A stretch of 64,000 nucleotides of DNA from Candidatus Acidiferrum sp. (GCA_035517015.1 DATIZQ010000008.1:4440-68439), one strand, 5' to 3'; numbered from the stretch's first letter, positions 2,561 to 61,661 are shown. Numbers and translations: made by a program. The notes: a model not told the origin generated them from the letters alone.

Positions 2561-3717
2561 CCATCTACCGCAGACATAAGAGGAATTGCGAGCACCAGGG
2601 GGAAGGCCGGAAATATCGGCGGTGTCGCTGCCCAATTTGGGTTGACGGCTTTGTAGGAGGTAAGGAAGTCCGTAAATCGATCGACATCACGGATTGGGGG
2701 AAAGCACAAGATAAGGTGCGGCAGTGGGAGTCACAAGAGAGTGAACCGACGCCCGTACTCGAACCGATCACCATTCAAGTGGCCAGCGAACGATTCCTTA
2801 TGAACGCAGCGACACAGAAGCTAAACGAATCCACAATATACAAGTACCGGCTGTTGTTCAAACAAATCGGCGACTTCTCGCAGAAGCGCGGCCTGCGCTA
2901 CGTCAAAGAATTGGACCTGGTGACACTTGACGATTTCCGAGCGGGATGGAAAGACGGAGCGCGTTCAAGCGCGAAGAAACTAGAAAGGCTTCGCGCATTC
3001 TTCCGTTTCGCCCAAGAGCGGGAGTGGATCACAAAAAATCCGGCTGCGGGCCTCAGGGCTCCTAAGGTGACACTGTGTCCGACAATGCCCTACACAGGCG
3101 AAGAGATGCTGAGGATTCTCGCGGCAATAGACAAATACAGAGACGCGTTCCCCGCTCGCGGCAGAGAGAACGCGCTACGACTTCGCGGGCTCGTGTTGTT
3201 GCTGCGGTACAGTGGAATGCGAATCGGAGACGCAGTCAGCCTTTCGGCGGATCGAATTGAGGGTGACCGGCTTTTCCTTTATACGCAAAAGACAGGCGTG
3301 GCAGTAAATACCGTGTTGCCGAACTTTGTGGTAAAAACCCTAGAGGCAATCCCCAAAGTCAAGGACAGGCATTTCTTCTGGAATGGCATGGGCAAGCTCG
3401 AGACCATCGTTGGGAGTTGGCGCAGGCGGCTGGCGAAGCTCTTCGAACTCGCAGGAGTATCAAAGGGCCATGCGCACCGATTCCGTGACACCTTCGCCGT
3501 GGAACTTCTCCTCAGTGGCGTGCTGATCGAGCGAGTGTCTGTGCTTCTCGGGCACCAAAGCGTGCGCATCACAGAAAAGCATTACTCACCGTGGGTGCGA
3601 GCGCGCCAGGAACAGCTTGAAGCCGATTTGCGGCGCTCATGGGAGCTCGATCCGGTCTCACTCATGGAGGCGAAGGGTACACCTGGGGTACACGAGAAAA
3701 ACGAGAGGATTAACTAA
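2554..3717 (+). CDS. Tyrosine site-specific recombinase (phage-type integrase)
   Basis: 387 aa. The C-terminal catalytic signature is RYSGMRIGD ... HRFRDTFAVELL ... LLGHQSVRITEKHY (R..HxxR..Y). The gene ends 22 nt from the 3' end of tRNA-Cys. Confidence 0.9.
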   Translation: MLTIYRRHKRNCEHQGEGRKYRRCRCPIWVDGFVGGKEVRKSIDITDWGKAQDKVRQWESQESEPTPVLEPITIQVASERFLMNAATQKLNESTIYKYRLLFKQIGDFSQKRGLRYVKELDLVTLDDFRAGWKDGARSSAKKLERLRAFFRFAQEREWITKNPAAGLRAPKVTLCPTMPYTGEEMLRILAAIDKYRDAFPARGRENALRLRGLVLLLRYSGMRIGDAVSLSADRIEGDRLFLYTQKTGVAVNTVLPNFVVKTLEAIPKVKDRHFFWNGMGKLETIVGSWRRRLAKLFELAGVSKGHAHRFRDTFAVELLLSGVLIERVSVLLGHQSVRITEKHYSPWVRARQEQLEADLRRSWELDPVSLMEAKGTPGVHEKNERIN

Positions 3718-3738
3718 TGGTTTTTCATGAGGATAGCT

Positions 3739-3813
3739 TGGAGGCGCGGGTGGGAATCGAACCCACGCATAAAGGTTTTGCAGACCTCTCCCTTACCTCT
3801 TGGGTACCGCGCC
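3739..3813 (-). tRNA. tRNA-Cys (anticodon GCA)
   Basis: The reverse complement folds as a 75-nt cloverleaf. Acceptor is GGCGCGG/CCGCGCC, T-arm is GTGGG-TTCGATT-CCCAC, the anticodon loop is CTGCAAA, and the 3' CCA is encoded. Confidence 0.9.
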
Positions 3814-3885: not shown

Positions 3886-5574
3886 CTATCGAATTTGCAG
3901 CTCGAACGGAACTCGCGCCTGCACGGAATCGGTGGCTCCGGCCAGCTTCCGCAGCATCGTTTCAACCGACGACGATTCGTTCATGCTCCGCTCGTGCTCA
4001 AACAGGAGCTCCCAGAAGGTCTTCTCCACCGGGTAGCGAATAATGCGCACGGACTCGCTCGGGGGGATATAGGCGAGCTGCTTCGCCACTTCGATCGCCC
4101 GATCCATTCCGCCTAATTCGTCCACCAGCCCGAGCTGTTTTGCCTGTTCGCCCGACCAAACGCGGCCCTTAGCGATCTGGTTCACCACTTCGATGGAAAG
4201 GTGCCGGCCCCTCGCGACGCCTTGTGTGAATTCGGCGTAGGTTTCTTGTAGTGATTTGTCGATGGCCGCGCGCTGCGCTGGAGTGAAATTTTGCTGATCG
4301 GAGAACAAGGTTGCGTTTTCGCTGGTGGCCACATAATCGGTGCTCATCCCCAGCAGCCCGTAGAGGCCCGAGATATTGAACTTCCCGATCAGCACTCCGA
4401 TTGAGCCGGTGATCGTGTCGGGATCAGCCACGATCTTTCGCGCCGGCGTCGCGATCCAGTATCCCCCCGACGCGGCCACGTCCGACATTGACACCACAAC
4501 AGGCTTCACGGCGTTCGCCAGCTCCACTTCGCGGCGGATCACCTCGCTGCCCACCACGGAGCCGCCGCCGGAGTCCACGCGAAGCACGATCGCCTTGATG
4601 CTCCGGTTCTCCCGGGCTGCGCGGAGGTCCGCCGCCACTGAATCGCCGCCCATGATGAAGCCGCCCGTCGGGCTGTCTTGCGAATCGCCCGAAACGATCA
4701 GGCCTGTCGCATGCACAACGGCTATCTCTTCGCCGCCGAATGTATTGAGCGACATCCGGTATCGGCCCAGCGATATTGGGTTCCACCCGTGGTAATGCTC
4801 CTTGAAATAGTCCTGTACCTGGTCCCAGTAGCCCAGCCGGTCGACGAGGCGGCTCTCCACCGCTTCGTGCGTCAGCAATGGCCCGCTCTCGACCAGTTGC
4901 TGGAATTTAGGTGTATCCATGTGCCGCGCTTTTGCCGTCTCGCTGAGGTAATGGTTGTAGACGCTGCGAAGCAGCGACTCGACCTCCTCTTTATGCGCAG
5001 GTGTGAACTTCTTCTCGGTGTAGGTGTTGCCGGCCGTCTTATATTCCGCGATGTGATAATACTCGGGAACAACCTTCAGCTTGTCGAGCGTTCCGCGGAA
5101 GAACAGTGCCTCCGCCATCATGCCGCGGATGCTCACCGGCACCGTTGGCACTAGCCAGATCTGCCCGCACCCGCTCGCGAGGTAATACTCAGGATTCCCT
5201 ACGCCGTCGTAGCCAAGATAGCAGATGCTCGGCTTGCCGCTCCTCTGAAACGCAATCAGGTGCGAACGCATTTCCTCGAGTTTCCCCCAGCCGGTCTCGA
5301 GCGGTCCGATGCGAACCACGATTCCCGTAATTCTGGGATCGCTGGCCGCGGAGTCGATGGCATCAAGGTAGTCGTGCAGCACGGGGGCCGCCGAGCCGCT
5401 GAACGCTGCCACCAAATCCAACGGCCGCTGCTCGTTAATCTCGCCGGCGGCGTTGATCACGAGGACGGAGTTCGAGAAAATCCGCTTGGGCCTCCATGCC
5501 GCCGCCCAGATGATCAGGACAAAGAAAACGATCAATGTTCCAATGACAATCCCTCGCCGTTTCCCCCACGTCAT
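3886..5574 (-). CDS. sppA: Signal peptide peptidase SppA, 67K (two S49 domains) type
   Basis: 562 aa with an N-terminal TM segment. It has duplicated S49 ClpP-like domains, including VVVSMSDVAASGGYWIA. Confidence 0.85.
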   Translation of the reverse strand: MTWGKRRGIVIGTLIVFFVLIIWAAAWRPKRIFSNSVLVINAAGEINEQRPLDLVAAFSGSAAPVLHDYLDAIDSAASDPRITGIVVRIGPLETGWGKLEEMRSHLIAFQRSGKPSICYLGYDGVGNPEYYLASGCGQIWLVPTVPVSIRGMMAEALFFRGTLDKLKVVPEYYHIAEYKTAGNTYTEKKFTPAHKEEVESLLRSVYNHYLSETAKARHMDTPKFQQLVESGPLLTHEAVESRLVDRLGYWDQVQDYFKEHYHGWNPISLGRYRMSLNTFGGEEIAVVHATGLIVSGDSQDSPTGGFIMGGDSVAADLRAARENRSIKAIVLRVDSGGGSVVGSEVIRREVELANAVKPVVVSMSDVAASGGYWIATPARKIVADPDTITGSIGVLIGKFNISGLYGLLGMSTDYVATSENATLFSDQQNFTPAQRAAIDKSLQETYAEFTQGVARGRHLSIEVVNQIAKGRVWSGEQAKQLGLVDELGGMDRAIEVAKQLAYIPPSESVRIIRYPVEKTFWELLFEHERSMNESSSVETMLRKLAGATDSVQARVPFELQIR

Positions 5575-5834
5575 CGTTCTTCACCCCTCGCCATTCTTCT
5601 GAACCTGTAAGTCGCGGAATAAGACGTTAGCACTTGCCGGGCCGAATCCGAAGATGGAAAAGCCGGCAAGTCGCGAAACCATCTCGGTCACGTCGTTTCG
5701 AGCGCGCGGGCTCCATGACCGCGATGAACCTCGCTCCCATAGTTCAACGGTACCGTTTGAACAATGCCACACGCCTAATCTCCGACGAGCCGCGCGCGCC
5801 TTGCTAACATTTGGTTTTGCCCCTGAAAACCCAG

Positions 5835-6797
5835 ATGAAACGCGCCTGGCTTGAACAATTGATGAAGGTCAACAAGGAACTGCTGTTGATCCTGTCGATC
5901 ATCGCCTTCGCCGCGATCGTGAATTTCTTTGTCGCCGGGCAGAAGCTGGTTCTCTCCTTCTACGATCTGCCGACTCTGTTCGCGGCGTACTACTTCGGCC
6001 GTTCGCGCGCCGTTCAGACAGCGCTCGCGTCGGTTCTGATCGTTTCTTGGCTGAACCTTATGAACCCCGTAGCGCTGGCCAGCGGGGCTAACGTTTCCCT
6101 GCGTCACATGATGGCGTGGTCGGACATCGCGATCTGGGGCGGATTCCTCCTGATTACCGCGTACGCAATGGGCTCGCTCTACGAGCGCAAGGAACAGAGC
6201 CTGGCTGAGCTTCGGGAGACGTACTACGGCGTGTTGCAGATCCTGTGCGGGGTGGTCTCAAACGACAAATACACGCAAAATCATTCCTACCGCACGTCTG
6301 TCTACGCGGCCCGTCTCGCCGAGGAAATGCGGCTGCCCGAGCAAAGGATCGAGGATATTCGCGCCGCTGCTCTGCTCCACGATATCGGCAAACTCGAGGT
6401 GAGCCGCCAGATTCTCTACAAGGCTGCACGTCTTAGCGACGAAGAGATCGTCGAGATGCAATCCCATTTGAACAAGGGCATGGACACGCTGAGGCCCGTC
6501 GGCGGAACGCTTCGCCGCGTGCTGCCTATCATCCTGAGCCACCACGACAAATTCGATGGCACGGGCTATCACCCTACGAAAGGCGATGACATCCCGCTCG
6601 AAGCCCGCATCATCAGCGTCGCGGACGCGTATGACGCGATGGTCAGCGACCGCCCATACCGCAAAGCGATCACGCCGTTCGAAGCGCGCGACATTCTTGT
6701 AAAGGGCGCCGGCAAGGATTGGGATCCAACGGTTGTCGATGCCTTCCAATCTGTCTTCCGAGCCGGCCGCATGGAAGTCCCCGAAGTCCTCGTGTAG
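5835..6797 (+). CDS. Membrane-anchored HD-GYP domain phosphohydrolase (probable c-di-GMP phosphodiesterase)
   Basis: Several N-terminal TM helices are followed by AALLHDIGK and HHDKFDGTGYHP (HD-GYP signature). The ATG at 5835 is preferred over the TTG at 5811. Confidence 0.8.
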   Translation: MKRAWLEQLMKVNKELLLILSIIAFAAIVNFFVAGQKLVLSFYDLPTLFAAYYFGRSRAVQTALASVLIVSWLNLMNPVALASGANVSLRHMMAWSDIAIWGGFLLITAYAMGSLYERKEQSLAELRETYYGVLQILCGVVSNDKYTQNHSYRTSVYAARLAEEMRLPEQRIEDIRAAALLHDIGKLEVSRQILYKAARLSDEEIVEMQSHLNKGMDTLRPVGGTLRRVLPIILSHHDKFDGTGYHPTKGDDIPLEARIISVADAYDAMVSDRPYRKAITPFEARDILVKGAGKDWDPTVVDAFQSVFRAGRMEVPEVLV

Positions 6798-58453: not shown

Positions 58454-58605
58454 TTCTTCGGTTTTGACTCACTCCGGAAAACGCCTTTGTACCGCTGGCG
58501 TCCCGCCGGCTCAATCTCCCGCTTGGCCTCTTGAGCGCCGGAGGCGCGATTGTACTTAGCCCGGCACGCAGCGCAGCGGAGTGCCGACTCATCGTTCCTG
58601 CCTTG

Positions 58606-58701
58606 CTTTGGGGTGGGAGCCCCCGACTTCAGTCGGGGGAGCACGACCGCTTTTCGGTCGTGCGAAAGAAGCCCCAAAACTCGCAGGGGCTTTAGCCCCG
58701 G
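58606..58701 (+). repeat. REP-like three-hairpin element, copy R1
   Basis: TTTGGGGTGGGAGCC + hairpin CCCCCGAC-TTCA-GTCGGGGG + GAGCA + hairpin CGACCG..CGGTCG + GCGAAAGAAGCC + hairpin GGGGC-TTTA-GCCCC. Confidence 0.8.
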
Positions 58702-58770
58702 CCGTTTCCCCCGGGGGGATCACACCTTGACACCGTTGCCTATTCGATCAACGATCCGGCCTGTCCGGCA

Positions 58771-58845
58771 TTTTAGGGGGTCGGAGCTTTAGCTCCGACA
58801 TGACTCCGCCTTTTTTATTTTTGGGGGGGGCTTCAGCCCCTGAGG
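58771..58845 (+). repeat. Partial REP-like element
   Basis: TTTTAGGGGG + hairpin TCGGAGC-TTTA-GCTCCGA ... hairpin GGGGC-TTCA-GCCCC. It ends 10 nt before the methyltransferase start. Confidence 0.6.
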
Positions 58846-58854
58846 ACTCCCGGC

Positions 58855-59970
58855 TTGCCCTTGCCCAAAACCGCTCCAATCTCACACGCTTCCCCCTCCG
58901 ACGCCGCTTCCTCCCCGCCTCTCCCCGCTCCCGTTTTTCACGACGCCGCGCACCACATCAAAATCTATCAGGGCGACTGCCTCGAAATCCTCGCCGCCAT
59001 TCCCGAAGCCTCCGTCGACCTCATTTTCGCCGACCCGCCCTACTTCCTCTCGAACAATGGCATCACCTGCCACGCCGGGCGCATGGTCAGCGTCGACAAG
59101 GGCGATTGGGACAAATCGCGCGGCGCTGACGCGAATCATCAGTTCAACCGCGACTGGCTCGCTGCCTGCCAGCGCGTCCTGCAGCCGAACGGCACCATCT
59201 GGGTCAGCGGGACCAGCCACGTCATCCATTCCGTCGGCTTCGCCATGCAGCAGCTCGGCTTCAAGCTGCTCAACGACATTTCCTGGGTCAAGCCCAATCC
59301 GCCGCCCAATCTTTCTTGCCGCTACTTCACCCACGCCACCGAAACCATCATCTGGGCCGCCAAGAACTCGAAGAGCCGCCACACCTTCAATTACAAGCAC
59401 ATGAAGCAGCTCGCCGGCGGCAAGCAGATGAAAAGCGTCTGGACCATTCCGCCTCCCGAGCCTTGGCAGAAGAAATTCGGCAAGCATCCCACGCAAAAGC
59501 CCGTCGCCCTCCTCGAACGCATCCTCCTCGCCGCCTCCGCCGAAGGCGACCTCGTCCTCGACCCCTTCTCCGGCTCCGGCACGACGCTCGTCGCCGCGCT
59601 TCGCCTCTCTCGCCGCGCGCTCGCCGCCGAATTCGACGCGACCTGGATTCAGTTGGCCCTCGTTCGAGTGTGTTCCGATCTGGTACAGGTGCGGATTTTC
59701 GCTGCCTGCCTTCACTTCGATCTTGATCCCGACCGCGACCCTGTGGATCGATCCAGATCGCCCGTGCCCGACGCTCCGCCAACTCGCCTCGTTCGCCGCG
59801 ACCGCAACTTTCATTTCGTCGGCGCATCGCAGCGCGACGTTGTCTTCTCGGTCACCGCCGACGACCTGAGCGACGCATGGACGAGATTCCATTCCAGCGC
59901 CACATCGAAAACAGAGATTCTCTTCGTCATCAAGACCGAAACCGAGATTTATCTCGCGCAGGGAAAATGA
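58855..59970 (+). CDS. Beta-class N6-adenine (N4/N6 amino) DNA methyltransferase, DpnA/M.DpnIIB-like, with a C-terminal extension of about 105 aa
   Basis: Motif IV IFADPPYF (DPPY at 59032-59043) precedes motif I LDPFSGSGTT. Blocks VSVDKGDWDK, NLSCRYFTHATETIIWA and GKHPTQKP are present. The first in-frame start is TTG and there is no ATG in the first about 80 codons. Confidence 0.85.
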   Translation: MPLPKTAPISHASPSDAASSPPLPAPVFHDAAHHIKIYQGDCLEILAAIPEASVDLIFADPPYFLSNNGITCHAGRMVSVDKGDWDKSRGADANHQFNRDWLAACQRVLQPNGTIWVSGTSHVIHSVGFAMQQLGFKLLNDISWVKPNPPPNLSCRYFTHATETIIWAAKNSKSRHTFNYKHMKQLAGGKQMKSVWTIPPPEPWQKKFGKHPTQKPVALLERILLAASAEGDLVLDPFSGSGTTLVAALRLSRRALAAEFDATWIQLALVRVCSDLVQVRIFAACLHFDLDPDRDPVDRSRSPVPDAPPTRLVRRDRNFHFVGASQRDVVFSVTADDLSDAWTRFHSSATSKTEILFVIKTETEIYLAQGK

Positions 59971-59982
59971 TCTAATGCGGCG

Positions 59983-60753
59983 GTGCAACTTGCCCTTCCG
60001 ACCAAAGGCCTCGCCGCATATACGAGCGCATCCCAACGGGCGCGTGTCGCCACAGAGGCATGGGGCCTCGAAAATCTCTACTGCGCGAACTGCAGCTCGC
60101 GCGCGCTGAATCCATCGCCCCCGAACACGCCGGCAATCGATTTCGAGTGCCCGAAGTGCCGCATCCGCTTCCAGCTCAAATCGCAGTCGCACGGGTTCGG
60201 CGAGCGAATCCTCGACTCCGCCTACAACAAGATGGTTCGCGAAATTAAAGAGAACCGCACGCCGAACCTCTTTGCCCTGCACTACGAACTCGATTCATGG
60301 AGAGTGGCGAACCTGCTCCTGATTCCGAGCTTCGCCTTCCCCCTCTCAGCCATCGAGAAAAGGAAGCCCTTGGCGCCGACCGCGCGGCGTGCAGGCTGGG
60401 TGGGTTGCAACATCCTCCTTGGTGCGATTCCGGGAGATGCCCGAATCCCGCTCGTCATCGATGGCGTTCCGTCTCCCGCGAAACAGGTGCGCGAACTGTA
60501 CGCCCGAGTGCGTCCGCTGAAGGCGCTCGGAGCCGAACAGCGCGGATGGACTCTCGATGTGTTGAATGCGGTTCGTTCCCTCGAAAAGACGGAATTCTCG
60601 CTGGCCGACGCTTACGAACTCGAGGACGGGCTGTCGGCCCTCCACCCGGACAACCGCCACGTCCGCGACAAGATCCGCCAGCAGCTTCAGATTCTCCGCG
60701 ACATGGGCTTGCTGCAATTCCTCGGCGGAGGCGCGTACAGACTCAGGCGCTAG
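59983..60753 (+). CDS. DpnI-family (Dam-replacing protein family) PD-(D/E)XK endonuclease homolog with a C-terminal winged helix
   Basis: 256 aa with a GTG start 12 nt after the MTase stop. As I recall it, the protein is colinear with R.DpnI: Cys4 (CANC...CPKC), D53, K66, RKPLAPTARRAGWVGCNI and KIRQQLQILRD. Position 64 is Gln, not Glu. Confidence 0.8.
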   Translation: MQLALPTKGLAAYTSASQRARVATEAWGLENLYCANCSSRALNPSPPNTPAIDFECPKCRIRFQLKSQSHGFGERILDSAYNKMVREIKENRTPNLFALHYELDSWRVANLLLIPSFAFPLSAIEKRKPLAPTARRAGWVGCNILLGAIPGDARIPLVIDGVPSPAKQVRELYARVRPLKALGAEQRGWTLDVLNAVRSLEKTEFSLADAYELEDGLSALHPDNRHVRDKIRQQLQILRDMGLLQFLGGGAYRLRR

Positions 60754-60766
60754 CGAAGGTCTTAGG

Positions 60767-60860
60767 TTTGGGGTGGAAGCCCCGGACCTTCAGTCCGGGG
60801 AGCATCGCGCCTTTTGCGATGCGAAAGAAGCCTCAAAATTAAATTGGGCTTTAGCCCTGG
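60767..60860 (+). repeat. REP-like three-hairpin element, copy R2 (3' flank of RAYT)
   Basis: TTTGGGGTGGAAGCC + CCCCGGAC-CTTCA-GTCCGGGG + AGCATCGC..GCGATGC + GCGAAAGAAGCC + GGGC-TTTA-GCCC. The last hairpin loop contains the RAYT stop codon. Confidence 0.8.
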
Positions 60861-61327
60861 GTCGTCCGCTCAAACCATGCCGGCCGCGCATCAACCTCAG
60901 CTCCCGGGGTCGCCGACGAATATGGATATTTCTCCGCTCGATCGACAAGAAACCTCGCGACGGGATTCTCCCAAATGTACTTGCGATGGCTTTCGTAGTC
61001 TCGAGCGTCCTTGATTCGACGCTCACCGAAGCCCGCCTGCCAGATCTCCGTTTTCACTCCGAATTCCTTGCCTGCGCGAAACGAAAATCCGCCTTTGATG
61101 TATTGAACGGCTTTTTCCACCGGAACGTTTTCTGCGGGTGTCACGAGCACGTGAAAATGGTCCGGCATCACCACGAACTCGTGCAGCAGGAATCGCCCTT
61201 TCTTCCTGTTGTCCTGCAACACATCCAGGAAGAGTCGCGCCATCCTCTCCGTTTGAAAAACTCGACGCCGATCCTTCGCTGTCGAAGTGATGAAGAACGT
61301 GCGAATTTCTTGAGGAGCGTGCGCCAT
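60851..61327 (-). CDS. REP-associated tyrosine transposase (RAYT; IS200/IS605 Y1 TnpA-like)
   Basis: HUH motif MPDHFHVLV and catalytic Tyr motif RKYIWENPV. 159 aa from ATG 61327. REP elements flank it in inverted orientation. Confidence 0.85.
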   Translation of the reverse strand: MAHAPQEIRTFFITSTAKDRRRVFQTERMARLFLDVLQDNRKKGRFLLHEFVVMPDHFHVLVTPAENVPVEKAVQYIKGGFSFRAGKEFGVKTEIWQAGFGERRIKDARDYESHRKYIWENPVARFLVDRAEKYPYSSATPGAEVDARPAWFERTTQG

Positions 61328-61334
61328 TAGAATT

Positions 61335-61407
61335 CCCGGGGCTAAAGCCCGCCGTATCCTAACGAACTTTTCCCGGGCCTGAAAGGCCCGGGCTTCCACC
61401 CTAAAAC
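61335..61407 (-). repeat. REP-like element in inverted orientation (5' flank of RAYT)
   Basis: The reverse complement reads TTTTAGGGTGGAAGCC + CGGGCC-TTTCA-GGCCCG ... GGGC-TTTA-GCCCC. It lacks the middle hairpin. Confidence 0.75.
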
Positions 61408-61470
61408 CCACGCCACACCCCAAAACCCCACGCGCCCCGTCGAAGCTCTCAAGTTCGGGTGGCTGTTAGC

Positions 61471-61566
61471 TTTTAGGGTGGAAGCCCTGCGCTTTAGCGC
61501 AGGGAGCATCGCGCCTTGTGCGATGCGAAAGAAGCCCGCCCCCAAAAATTGGGCTTCAGCCCCGGG
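61471..61566 (+). repeat. REP-like three-hairpin element, copy R3
   Basis: TTTTAGGGTGGAAGCC + CCTGCGC-TTTA-GCGCAGG + GAGCATCGC..GCGATGC + GCGAAAGAAGCC + GGGC-TTCA-GCCC. Confidence 0.8.
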
Positions 61567-61661
61567 ACTTCCCCCTTGCTTTTCCACATTCCCTTGGGTG
61601 TAGAATCCGCCCAATTTCGGACCCGGACAAAACGATTCAGGCGTGACAGGGGGCAAGGGCG

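Follow-up and report, generated by a model that had tools for sequence, protein, structure and literature searches.

The DNA at 58855-60753 of the window (the whole 64-kb stretch that was analysed) carries two adjacent genes which we tentatively read as a conserved methylation-gated writer/cutter defence cassette. A methylase of the Dam/DpnA type (M) would write Gm6ATC, and a nuclease of the DpnI/Drg type (R) would cut DNA that is fully methylated in this way. The observations on which this reading builds are the families of the two genes, their conserved residues and conserved operon, three cis-elements containing GATC, avoidance of GATC in the rest of the cassette, and R genes that occur without M. 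Such a cassette would not be a protect-and-cut restriction-modification system, since the nuclease would be harmless without the methylase and the product of the methylase would be the substrate of the nuclease. The original prediction had two co-directional genes separated by 12 nt. Both ORFs were found exactly where it had placed them, and the observation as a whole is real and stronger than originally described.

58855-59970, + strand: ORF1 (M), beta-class N6-adenine DNA methyltransferase, 371 aa, TTG start
59983-60753, + strand: ORF2 (R), DpnI/Drg-family protein, 256 aa, GTG start

Judged from the homologs, which have a conserved M-P-K, the TTG at 58861 is the likely true start of ORF1.

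The methylase and its extra domain

About 58960-59673 (about aa 36-273), + strand: MTase domain of ORF1
59032-59043 (aa 60-63), + strand: DPPY
59566-59580 (aa 238-242), + strand: FSGSG
59743-59967 (aa 297-371), + strand: C-terminal domain, predicted beta-hairpin/beta/alpha/beta-hairpin

Motif IV (D/S-PP-Y/F) placed ahead of the AdoMet motif I (FxGxG) is the hallmark of the beta class, and the form DPPY goes with methylation of adenine at N6. The beta-class order claimed for ORF1 was confirmed: DPPY precedes FSGSG, both are invariant in 40 homologs, and a profile search matches PF01555 to aa 54-266 with E=3e-56 (191 bits, cut-off 26.7). More than 100 positions, the catalytic motifs among them, are invariant in the alignment of these homologs.

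Against DpnA proteins encoded in Dam/DpnA/DpnII operons ORF1 shows 53-56% identity with one gap (54% for the DpnA-like gene of pSRQ700), whereas the identity to CcrM is 45% with four gaps and to the CcrM group 44-47.5%. The nearest annotated relative, at 57%, is the truncated MTase gene which adjoins drg in the gonococcus. The blocks which had been listed as characteristic of the DpnA group (ADPPYFLSN, VSVDKGDWDK, NLSCRYFTH.TETI.WA and GKHPTQKP) are present in ORF1 and common to authentic DpnA-family proteins. The base-reading loops, Loop-2B, Loop-45 and Loop-6E, are defined on the CcrM structure; all three indels of ORF1 relative to CcrM in these loops are common to DpnA, and Loop-45 (NPPPNLSCRYFTHATE) is nearly identical to that of DpnA. 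The centre of Loop-2B is unlike DpnA (ITCHAGRM vs FSNSGGQV). The identities and Loop-45 thus support the assignment to the DpnA group. The comparison suggests that ORF1 writes Gm6ATC, with the reservation that MTases at 53-57% identity can differ in specificity. In meningococci an intact dam gene renders the DNA DpnI-sensitive and MboI-resistant (PMC4269198).

A different model postulates that M reads another site, e.g. GANTC or a novel motif, and that R restricts Dam-methylated invaders while M serves some other end, so that the two genes are merely compatible neighbours in a defence island. This would remove the paradox with no added assumptions. The best PDB and NCBIfam matches of ORF1 are to CcrM, in libraries without a DpnA-type entry, the middle of Loop-2B differs from DpnA, and DpnA has no extra C-terminal domain. 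However, by identity, indels and Loop-45 ORF1 is nearer to the GATC enzymes, and the NCBIfam CcrM equivalog NF050803 reaches only 249 bits, where 830 would be needed, and matches the MTase domain only. A CcrM/GANTC enzyme was dropped as the best reading of ORF1 after authentic DpnA-family sequences had been retrieved. The model also leaves unexplained the co-evolution of M and R in a tight operon in two phyla, the selection of GATC in the M promoter and linker, and the avoidance of GATC by R only when it is linked to M (see below). We find it rather unlikely.

DpnA proteins have a single domain of about 255-270 aa; ORF1 continues with a linker predicted to be disordered (AlphaFold pLDDT <50) and then a C-terminal domain of some 75 aa that is predicted to fold (pLDDT 88.6 when modelled alone, 90-97 in the full model). 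With a beta-class MTase domain, a C-terminal extension and about 360-370 aa overall, ORF1 resembles CcrM and M.HinfI (GANTC), but it differs from them in following DpnA in the base-reading loops, and its C-terminal domain is unrelated to the SAND-like domain of CcrM in sequence and fold searches. The domain had no match in Pfam, PADLOC or a PDB-sequence profile search. In Foldseek the best match of the domain model was phi29 p6 (E=0.11, not significant) and CcrM (6pbd) was not retrieved, while the whole ORF1 model retrieved MTase domains only. No known fold matches the modelled domain, and its fold appears to be novel. Three Pyrinomonadaceae cassettes have instead a winged-helix-like C-terminal domain without homology to that of ORF1.

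At the start of the domain there is in every case an ATG or GTG in frame, with GATCGATC after it, and position 297 is Met or Val in 40/40 aligned homologs. Because of this conserved start a separate translation of the domain is possible; no convincing -10/-35 arrangement for a separate protein was found upstream of the in-frame [AG]TG.

The nuclease

60172-60174, + strand: Q64 of ORF2
60178-60180, + strand: K66 of ORF2
60361-60414, + strand: methyl-cleft segment RKPLAPTARRAGWVGCNI of ORF2
60667-60690, + strand: recognition helix DKIRQQLQ of ORF2

Profile searches with ORF2 do retrieve the DpnI family: PF06044 (3e-52, 177 bits, cut-off 26.7), PF17726 (9e-26, 90 bits, cut-off 23) and PADLOC mREase_II, a methyl-directed REase call covering 1-255 of the 256 positions. 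The full-length colinearity with R.DpnI that had been noticed holds, 4esj aligning over residues 10-253 with 1e-58. In DpnI numbering E25, the zinc ligands C34/37/56/59, D53 and K66 are kept. The residues that read Gm6ATC are all identical in ORF2 and near-invariant in its homologs; N48, R126, L129, R135, W138 and G140 belong to the catalytic domain and K229, R231, Q232 and Q235 to the winged helix (G:C pairs and the two methyl groups). E228 of DpnI is Asp in ORF2. ORF2 is predicted to be an active, methyl-dependent nuclease which cuts Gm6ATC.

The motifs listed in the original prediction are present (the Cys4 site, RKPLAPTARRAGWVGCNI and DKIRQQLQILRD), except that the presumed PD-(D/E)XK core has to be corrected to D53...Q64-x-K66 (D...QLK). 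The catalytic Glu64 of DpnI is Gln in ORF2 and in all 120 close homologs. Every M-linked R protein is D...QxK, and the sequences of two characterised enzymes, DpnI and gonococcal Drg, are D...ExK. Gln64 was ruled out as an inactivating change specific to this clade, as it is also found in 32 stand-alone genes and Q and E occur in the ratio 65:56 among 125 diverse representatives of the family. No characterised enzyme of the Q form was found in the DpnI-family literature. MspJI and Mrr are other active modification-dependent nucleases with D...QxK.

The loss of Glu64, a metal ligand in DpnI, could also be taken to mean that the protein does not kill, but binds or only nicks Gm6ATC and is a reader of the mark or a regulator of a Dam-like methylase, the GATC clusters being operators. 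The winged helix alone binds Gm6ATC specifically, and the conserved GATC arrays described below resemble operator sites. However, a pure binder would not need the invariant D53, K66, E25 and zinc site, the alternation of Q and E is family-wide and includes solitary genes, and the cassette has defence genes for neighbours and coding DNA in which GATC is avoided. We regard such a writer-reader module as improbable.

Conservation of the pair and loss of the methylase

A survey of related genomes found the pair, M followed by R, at 47 of 79 species-level loci, in Acidobacteriota and some Verrucomicrobiota and in differing chromosomal contexts. The identities of M and R co-vary. The recurrence in different contexts argues for a cassette and not for an accident of rearrangement, the possibility that the adjacency was unique to this genome and made by REP elements. 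REP-like repeats of about 100 nt do bracket the present copy, where they are seen as direct-repeat families D1, D2, D4 and D5 and inverted pairs I1-I3, but conservation of the pair in many contexts led us to reject a REP-mediated origin.

58607-58701, unstranded: REP-like element, first copy (about 100 nt), upstream of the cassette
60762-60867: REP-like element, second copy, directly after ORF2
60851-61423, - strand: RAYT gene (Y1_Tnp, PF01797, 1.5e-13)
61466-61572: REP-like element, third copy, beyond the RAYT gene

Six loci have further genes inserted within the pair, separating M from R (AIPR, HD, GHKL, DndB-like and BglII-type restriction-modification genes), AIPR abortive-infection genes at two of them. 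The context of the cassette is a defence island.

The cassette resembles the dam/drg locus of Neisseria (NmeBII, gonococcal Drg), where the gene for a GmeATC-specific DpnI-family nuclease adjoins a DpnA-like beta-class MTase gene. In Neisseria, however, drg is inserted into dam, which it truncates, and according to the literature GATC adenine methylase and DpnI-type nuclease activities exclude each other there; here M and R have both stayed intact and are inherited together in two phyla. The order is R followed by the M remnant in Neisseria and M followed by R here, the nuclease core is D...ExK there and D...QxK here, and here the methylase has an added C-terminal domain and three GATC-bearing cis-elements are conserved. 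That drg replaces dam in Neisseria, as had been pointed out, is essentially right, with the refinement that a truncated DpnA-like MTase gene remains beside gonococcal drg, at what the literature describes as the locus of the dam gene truncated by drg.

Like DpnI/DpnII of S. pneumoniae and LlaDCHI of pSRQ700, the cassette is centred on GATC. The pneumococcus keeps the methyl-dependent nuclease and the GATC methylases in alternative cassettes of different strains, whereas here they are in one genome. DpnA of DpnII-type systems is found with a Dam-like methylase and the DpnII nuclease, and the relatives of ORF1 in S. mutans, pSRQ700 and Staphylococcus have this context (a Dam-like D12 methylase and a DpnII-family nuclease); ORF1 and the 47 cassette homologs have neither, the next gene being of the DpnI family.

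A DpnI/Drg gene is expected to be solitary, in a genome lacking an active GATC methylase. In a survey of more than 1000 winged-helix nucleases 87% had no neighbouring methylase gene and adjacent methylases were described as frameshifted (PMC11037411). Here an intact DpnA-like methylase gene is located 12 nt upstream, as in most of the 47 cassettes: about 39 of the M genes are intact and about 8 cassettes have a fragmented one. Literature searches found no relevant GATC methylome from Acidobacteria and no description of an MTase/DpnI operon.

The fragmented genes could indicate that the pair is a decay intermediate of a Neisseria-like dam replacement, R having landed beside an inactive or vanishing GATC methylase gene; the remnant beside drg in N. 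gonorrhoeae and the frameshifts of that survey would fit. This is at variance with the many intact M genes, with catalytic motifs that do not vary across a 43-86% divergence in sequence that parallels that of the nuclease, and with the conserved cis-elements. In addition several of the frameshifts may be sequencing errors, since they occur in long-read assemblies at runs of identical bases. Decay is a very improbable explanation.

R persists where M has been lost. In locus L038 M is largely deleted and R intact, and in L009, L032 and L045 there is no M within 6 kb while their R proteins nest among the M-linked ones. This argues against a classical type II restriction-modification system with inverted methyl preference, in which ORF1 would protect, ORF2 would cut unmethylated GATC, and the GATC elements would hold back R until methylation of the genome is complete, because loss of M would be lethal with a classical enzyme. 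The order M then R, site self-avoidance and methylation-sensing promoters are all typical of such systems, but neither the methyl cleft (L129, R135, W138, G140) nor the winged-helix pockets have changed, and no residue tells M-linked from solitary nucleases at thresholds of 80%/20%. We give this model little credence.

GATC elements and a possible switch

58727-58756, + strand: promoter-like element upstream of M, TTGACA (58727-58732), 13 nt, GATCAACGATC
58746 and 58753, + strand: GATC sites in the promoter-like element
58750-58755, + strand: candidate -10 hexamer AACGAT of M, 17-nt spacing
59677-59759, + strand: intragenic GATC cluster in the disordered linker of ORF1, sites at 59677, 59719, 59725, 59746, 59750 and 59756
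59968-59976, + strand: TGATCTAAT, which overlaps the stop codon of ORF1; the GTG of ORF2 follows 6 nt further on

GATC is common in the window and present in the cassette, as had been noted: there are 381 sites, among them those at 59719 and 59725, which is 0.86 of the Markov expectation (1.0 for GANTC). The coding DNA of the cassettes has an observed/expected ratio of 0.35-0.55, against 0.75-0.8 in the flanks. R genes are depleted only when linked to M (48 observed/116 expected vs 80/92). The flanks of M-linked and solitary R genes are similar (0.77 and 0.86), with mild depletion only, and no gradient of depletion with distance from the cassette was found. Site avoidance in the host, with GATC at 0.86, GANTC at 1.0 and the flanks alike, was thus uninformative as a clue to methylation.

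Against this background three elements stand out. The first, TTGACN-N12-14-GATC-N3-GATC, is found in 22 of the 32 cassettes with upstream DNA and in none of 1196 background windows, and only once in the 64-kb window. It may be the promoter of M. The second is the cluster in the linker, with the core GATC-TT-GATC-N8-11-GATC-N1-2-[AG]TG-GATCGATC. The 36 near-full-length cassettes examined have 3-8 GATC sites at the same place; the three from Pyrinomonadaceae have none. [AG]TGGATCGATC is found in 27/32 cassettes vs 1/1196 background windows. For Asp codons followed by C the cluster has GAT:GAC 104:8, compared with 36:148 for the remainder of M and 15:58 for R. The GATC sites of the linker are held by codon choice, i.e. 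there is selection for GATC at the DNA level.

The third element, TGATCTAAT, reads as an extended -10 box, TG-n-TCTAAT. GATC-N-AAT lies within 40 nt of the R start at 41 of 46 M-linked loci, stays with R when genes intervene between M and R and also where M has been lost, and is absent from distant stand-alone R genes. If it functions as an extended -10 box, ORF2 would have its own promoter and a leaderless mRNA. Both proposed -10 boxes are weak: AACGAT matches the consensus at only three of six positions, for which reason a consensus scan is silent on the M element, and TCTAAT lacks the conserved A at position 2. The scan of 58500-61000 gave no sigma-70 promoter, and terminator-like sites were not above chance.

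Expression that senses methylation is known from restriction-modification systems with self-methylated promoters and from the Dam-regulated IS10 pIN, pap and agn43. As in these, cognate sites are located inside the putative -10 regions of the system's own genes. In self-regulated restriction-modification, however, methylation protects from the partner nuclease and the circuit coordinates the two activities, whereas here methylation would create the nuclease substrate and the circuit would have to keep the activities apart.

The model we favour proposes that the coexistence of M and R depends on regulation by the Gm6ATC mark itself. The M promoter would have two GATC sites in its -10 region, R would be transcribed from its own GATC-overlapped extended -10 promoter as a leaderless messenger, so that read-through from M would be poorly translated, and a cluster of 5-6 GATC sites would lie between the two promoters. 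The methylation state of these elements would decide which gene is on. A given cell would thus either methylate its DNA and keep R off, or leave it unmethylated and express R, and any stray methylation of its own DNA would close the circuit down. Three ways out of the paradox had been offered in advance; the evidence weakens the first two, a different specificity of the MTase and a changed specificity of the nuclease, and favours a form of the third, a writer/reader module. It should be noted that a switch from nuclease-on to methylase-on would be dangerous for the cell and has no evident mechanism, and that the result of the promoter scan, the weak -10 boxes, the centre of Loop-2B and the D...QxK core of all M-linked R proteins also speak against the circuit.

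Two further models use the same pair of activities. The first hypothesizes a sensitiser, in which M completes the methylation of hemimethylated or single-strand-derived GATC of invading or replicating foreign DNA for R, and thereby extends DpnI-type restriction to DNA which would otherwise escape. For this M would have to be poor at methylating the unmethylated duplex chromosome de novo, owing to a maintenance or single-strand bias or to targeting by the C-terminal domain. DpnI-type enzymes cut hemimethylated sites poorly (PMC3424567, PMC11037411). DpnA is a single-strand methylase, and CcrM, besides working on single strands, has a preference for hemimethylated sites. The lineage-specific C-terminal domains could target M, the GATC elements could be a fail-safe, and the defence-island context fits. 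On the other hand DpnA methylates unmethylated DNA de novo, any leaky methylation of the chromosome would perpetuate itself and kill the cell, and the model alone does not account for an independent, GATC-overlapped nuclease promoter. It is unlikely in our opinion.

In the second, an abortive-infection kill switch, R would be constitutive and harmless to an unmethylated genome, and infection would activate or derepress M, whereupon the genome and the phage DNA would both gain Gm6ATC and be destroyed together. It makes sense of two activities that are both needed and normally kept apart, AIPR genes have entered two of the loci, and the C-terminal domain could be a sensor or inhibitor. There is, however, no identifiable trigger or sensor and no precedent, and the strongly conserved near-consensus -35 of the M promoter does not suggest a silent gene. 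We consider it quite improbable.

Returning to the writer/cutter cassette, it is possible, though we would not put it higher, that it is either an epigenetic circuit (methylated with the nuclease silent, or unmethylated and armed) or a system in which the methylase marks invaders; modification would be a death mark either way. Both the exclusion stated for Neisseria and the survey with its frameshifted neighbours would lead one to expect otherwise than what is found here, an intact, co-evolving M/R operon that occurs in dozens of Acidobacteriota from soil and in some Verrucomicrobiota. Should M have another specificity, the cassettes would still define a large uncharacterised DpnA-like branch with a new C-terminal domain, and be the first glimpse of that half of the DpnI family which has D...QxK. 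The three conserved GATC-based control elements make the question of coexistence directly testable. If both predicted specificities are true, DNA is methylated in order to be destroyed, and writer and cutter alike are under the control of the mark. Such an epigenetic circuit, bistable or fail-safe and occurring in nature, would be of relevance to phage defence, to phase variation and as a compact module for synthetic biology, and a single clone would reproduce the complementary DpnI/DpnII strategy of pneumococcal populations.

The two genes and their families

The two co-directional genes lie where the original prediction placed them, 12 nt apart, in an Acidobacteriota metagenome-assembled genome. 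A protein identical to that of ORF2 is on record under 'Candidatus Acidoferrum sp.'.

58855-59970, forward strand: ORF1, methylase gene (M), 371 aa
59983-60753, forward strand: ORF2, DpnI-like nuclease gene (R), 256 aa

The beta-class motif order of the methylase was read correctly, with DPPY before FSGSG and a match to PF01555 (N6/N4 DNA methylase, E=3e-56). The claimed colinearity of ORF2 with DpnI also holds: PF06044 and PF17726 both match, and the alignment with the sequence of the R.DpnI crystal structure runs end to end (E=1e-58). In PADLOC, ORF2 falls under the type II methyl-directed restriction enzymes, with 255/256 profile positions covered.

The residues of ORF2 were mapped onto those defined in two papers on the structure of R.DpnI. 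In that enzyme N48, R126 and R135 hydrogen-bond the outer G:C pairs, L129, R135, W138 and G140 form the methyl-binding cleft, and the winged-helix contacts include E228, K229, R231, Q232 and Q235 (PMC3424567, PMC4117772). ORF2 keeps the three readers of the outer G:C pairs (N48, R126, R135), the cleft (L129, R135, W138, G140), the four zinc cysteines and E25, D53 and K66; in the winged helix K229, R231, Q232 and Q235 are kept and E228 is Asp. In the catalytic, zinc, G:C-reading and methyl-cleft set the sole change is that of the metal ligand Glu64 to Gln. Gln64, a possible sign of inactivation, is present in 120/120 close homologs but is not peculiar to this clade, as Gln is also found in 32 solitary nuclease genes of other phyla and in 65 of 125 diverse family representatives (Glu in 56). 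Other active modification-dependent nucleases, MspJI and Mrr, use D...QxK. DpnI and gonococcal Drg, which are characterised and whose sequences were compared here, have Glu at this position, and a literature search found no characterised family enzyme of the Q form. No alignment position separates methylase-linked from solitary nucleases, and the simplest inference is that ORF2 would be an ordinary Gm6ATC-directed enzyme. A protein which reads the mark and does not cleave is an improbable alternative. The nuclease gene has a single GATC (60672-60675), located in the K-I-R codons of the winged-helix recognition helix (DKIRQQLQ).

The top PDB and NCBIfam matches of ORF1 are to CcrM, which methylates GANTC; neither library includes any GATC enzyme of the DpnA type, and ORF1 scores 249 on the CcrM equivalog model, whose cut-off is 830. 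Authentic DpnA-type proteins were fetched from the database with a DpnA sequence serving solely as bait. They include P0272 of Streptococcus mutans, a member of a Dam-like/DpnA/DpnII operon, and P0337, which is named 'Modification methylase DpnIIB'. ORF1 is 53-56% identical to the DpnA-type proteins (1 gap) and 45% to CcrM (4 gaps), while DpnA-type proteins and CcrM share 42-45% (3 gaps). CcrM reads its bases with Loop-2B (G, A, N), Loop-45 (T, C) and Loop-6E (PMC6787082). ORF1 and DpnA depart together from CcrM at all three; their Loop-45 is near-identical (NPPPNLSCRYFTHATE), whereas at the centre of Loop-2B ORF1 is unlike DpnA. A translated search of annotated records ranked the relatives of ORF1 as follows.

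Neisseria gonorrhoeae, unannotated stretch: 57%; leuS, drg, then this gene, truncated by a stop that follows codon 125
Lactococcus plasmid pSRQ700: 54%; Dam-like, DpnA-like, type II nuclease (the LlaDCHI system)
Staphylococcal plasmids: 51-52%; the same three-gene layout
Alphaproteobacterial CcrM group: 44-47.5%

We consider it quite likely that ORF1 methylates GATC; a methylase with another specificity is a lesser possibility that we would still keep in mind.

Conservation, context and loss

The original prediction had proposed a survey of the two-gene arrangement in related genomes. A scan for ORF2 relatives, with one genome per species, gave 79 loci, and in 47 of these an ORF1-like gene is located directly upstream of the nuclease on the same strand, usually with a gap of 16-25 nt. 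The upstream methylase is near-universal for nucleases with 57% or more identity to ORF2 (Acidiferrales, Terriglobia, Solibacter, Pyrinomonadaceae) and is also present in five Verrucomicrobiota loci; within 6 kb of 33 more distant nucleases from many phyla, including archaea, no ORF1-like methylase was found. The identities of M and R to the window proteins co-vary across loci, and the flanking genes differ (serS, ffh/yidC, acs and others). M and R are thus inherited together as a cassette.

Repeats and a transposase gene surround the cassette in the window.

58607-58701: REP-like element of about 100 nt, first of two bracketing the cassette
60762-60867: REP-like element of about 100 nt, second of the two
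60851-61423, reverse strand: IS200-like Y1 transposase (RAYT-type) gene
61466-61572: REP-like element of about 100 nt, beyond the RAYT gene

Creation of the M-R adjacency by these repeats is ruled out, since the pair is conserved in differing contexts. A Y1_Tnp gene also adjoins the cassette in L001/L002 and L090, and REP/RAYT elements may help to move or shuffle it. In L090 (4830-6972) two more coding stretches come after the nuclease gene, a 309-aa gene that matches NmeDI_C (PF27126) and a 52-aa fragment that matches DpnI_C; they indicate that additional restriction genes and remnants are stacked at this locus.

Six loci (L008, L021, L023, L026, L036, L075) have extra genes between M and R. 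The inserted genes code for two AIPR abortive-infection proteins, an HD-domain protein (HD + HD_assoc_2), a GHKL ATPase (L008), a DndB-like protein and a complete BglII-type restriction-modification pair of methylase and nuclease. The cassette thus has a defence-island setting, and the M-R junction acts as a hot spot for insertions. That the cassette itself is an abortive-infection switch we regard as very improbable. The same GHKL-type ATPase gene (~487 aa) follows the ORF1-like methylase in L088 (3501-6206) and in L008 (3328-5959), with the nuclease further downstream in L008 and no nuclease within 3.5 kb in L088; the methylase may have the ATPase as a partner, in place of the nuclease or in addition to it.

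Either gene can persist without the other. The methylase gene of L038 is mostly replaced and the nuclease intact, L009, L032 and L045 have nucleases 71-81% identical to methylase-linked ones and no methylase within 6 kb, and L088 is the reverse case. The cassette is not a classical restriction-modification pair, because a nuclease cutting unmethylated GATC could not outlive its methylase, whereas a methyl-dependent one can. A classical system with inverted methyl preference likewise has very little probability, given that the nuclease has outlived the methylase in L038, L009, L032 and L045.

The classic dam-replacing-gene locus of N. gonorrhoeae (L093, NZ_CP119142.1) has the DpnI-like drg followed by the DpnA-like beta-class methylase gene that stops after 125 codons.

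102-2738: leuS
2889-3758: drg
3995-4687: methylase remnant

According to the drg literature, insertion of drg inside dam truncates dam. Identification of the remnant as dam rests on its position and on that description, and suggests that neisserial dam is of the DpnA type and not of the E. coli Dam type. The Neisseria literature treats GATC methylation and DpnI-type cutting as mutually exclusive activities. In a survey covering over 1000 winged-helix nucleases, the adenine methylases adjoining them were reported as frameshifted (PMC11037411). Among our loci most methylase genes are intact and about eight are fragmented; several breaks sit within homopolymer runs of long-read assemblies, and three fall at the intragenic GATC cluster. 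More than 100 positions, catalytic motifs included, are invariant among 40 methylase homologs. With intact genes and invariant motifs, a decay intermediate as in Neisseria is hardly credible. The cassette is set apart from DpnA and neisserial Dam by the added domain and the GATC-bearing control regions.

GATC elements and the added domain

Three conserved GATC elements are absent from the original prediction.

58727-58756: element (i), upstream of M; perfect -35 box and two GATC sites, TTGACA-N13-GATCAACGATC
59677-59759: element (ii), inside M; six GATC sites in a linker predicted to be disordered (AlphaFold)
59968-59976: element (iii), TGATCTAAT; overlaps the stop codon of M, its end lying 6 nt ahead of the R start codon

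The candidate -10 hexamer of element (i) would be AACGAT at a 17-nt spacer, with one GATC abutting it upstream and the other overlapping it. The pattern is found in 22/32 cassettes and 0/1196 background windows, and once in the 64-kb window. Element (ii) has the conserved core GATC-TT-GATC-N8-11-GATC-N1-2-[AG]TG-GATCGATC in surrounding DNA that is not conserved; [AG]TGGATCGATC occurs in 27/32 cassettes against 1/1196 background windows. The linker GATC sites are kept by selection at the DNA level, because Asp codons followed by C are GAT:GAC 104:8 in the linker, against 36:148 in the rest of M (15:58 in R); GATC is present in the other two reading frames of the linker too. Element (iii) reads as an extended -10 box, TG-n-TCTAAT, and its short distance to the start codon would imply a leaderless nuclease mRNA. 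It is present in 41/46 methylase-linked loci, stays with the nuclease gene at most M-R insertion loci (though not at L008), is kept where the methylase is lost and is missing from distant solitary nuclease genes. A consensus scan around the cassette found no canonical promoter; conservation and geometry are what suggest promoter roles for the elements.

Outside the three elements the cassette avoids GATC.

Observed/expected GATC
R: 0.35
C-terminal part of M: 0.36
MTase domain: 0.55
Cassette flanks: 0.75-0.8

Around the cassette the depletion has no distance gradient. Among nuclease genes, avoidance of GATC is confined to the methylase-linked ones (48 observed, 116 expected; solitary genes 80 and 92). 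Elements and avoidance tie the biology of the cassette to GATC independently of the protein comparisons.

Residues 297-371 of ORF1 form a small, confidently predicted domain (pLDDT 88.6). Searches of Pfam, PADLOC and PDB sequences gave no match to it, and the closest fold, that of the DNA-binding protein p6 of phage phi29, is not significant (E=0.11). The domain opens with an in-frame ATG/GTG and GATCGATC in 40/40 aligned homologs (GTG at 59743-59745 in the window), which makes it conceivable that it is also translated separately as a protein of ~75 aa. L017, L054 and L013 have frameshifts at this element. In Pyrinomonadaceae cassettes (L025, L035, L039; M ORFs ~4884-6074) a winged-helix-like C-terminal domain (...GRGRYRLRH) replaces it, the internal GATC cluster is absent and the M and R reading frames overlap. 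These cassettes keep a putative GATC-TTA-GATC promoter element, and their flanking DNA is almost free of GATC in L035 and L039 (O/E 0.02 and 0.07; 0.42 in L025).

How the two activities could coexist

At face value the cassette would pair an enzyme that writes a GATC mark with a nuclease that cuts DNA so marked. Long-term purifying selection acts on M and R as a unit, and the two genes must therefore be compatible. The best-supported reading, which we hold tentatively, is that the cassette GATC sites, through their methylation state, gate the expression of both genes. The nuclease would be made solely from its own leaderless transcript, from a promoter sensing GATC methylation, and the methylase promoter would sense it likewise. 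The two activities would then occur at different times or in different cells, or stray self-methylation would switch the circuit off. A role of the methylase as a sensitiser, which would complete the methylation of foreign DNA that is hemimethylated or derived from single strands, is unlikely.

The component families of the cassette are already known. For the intact conserved pairing, the added domain and the GATC circuit elements, no earlier description turned up in the searchable literature. The chance is substantial that the cassette represents a new kind of defence logic, with modification marking DNA for destruction.
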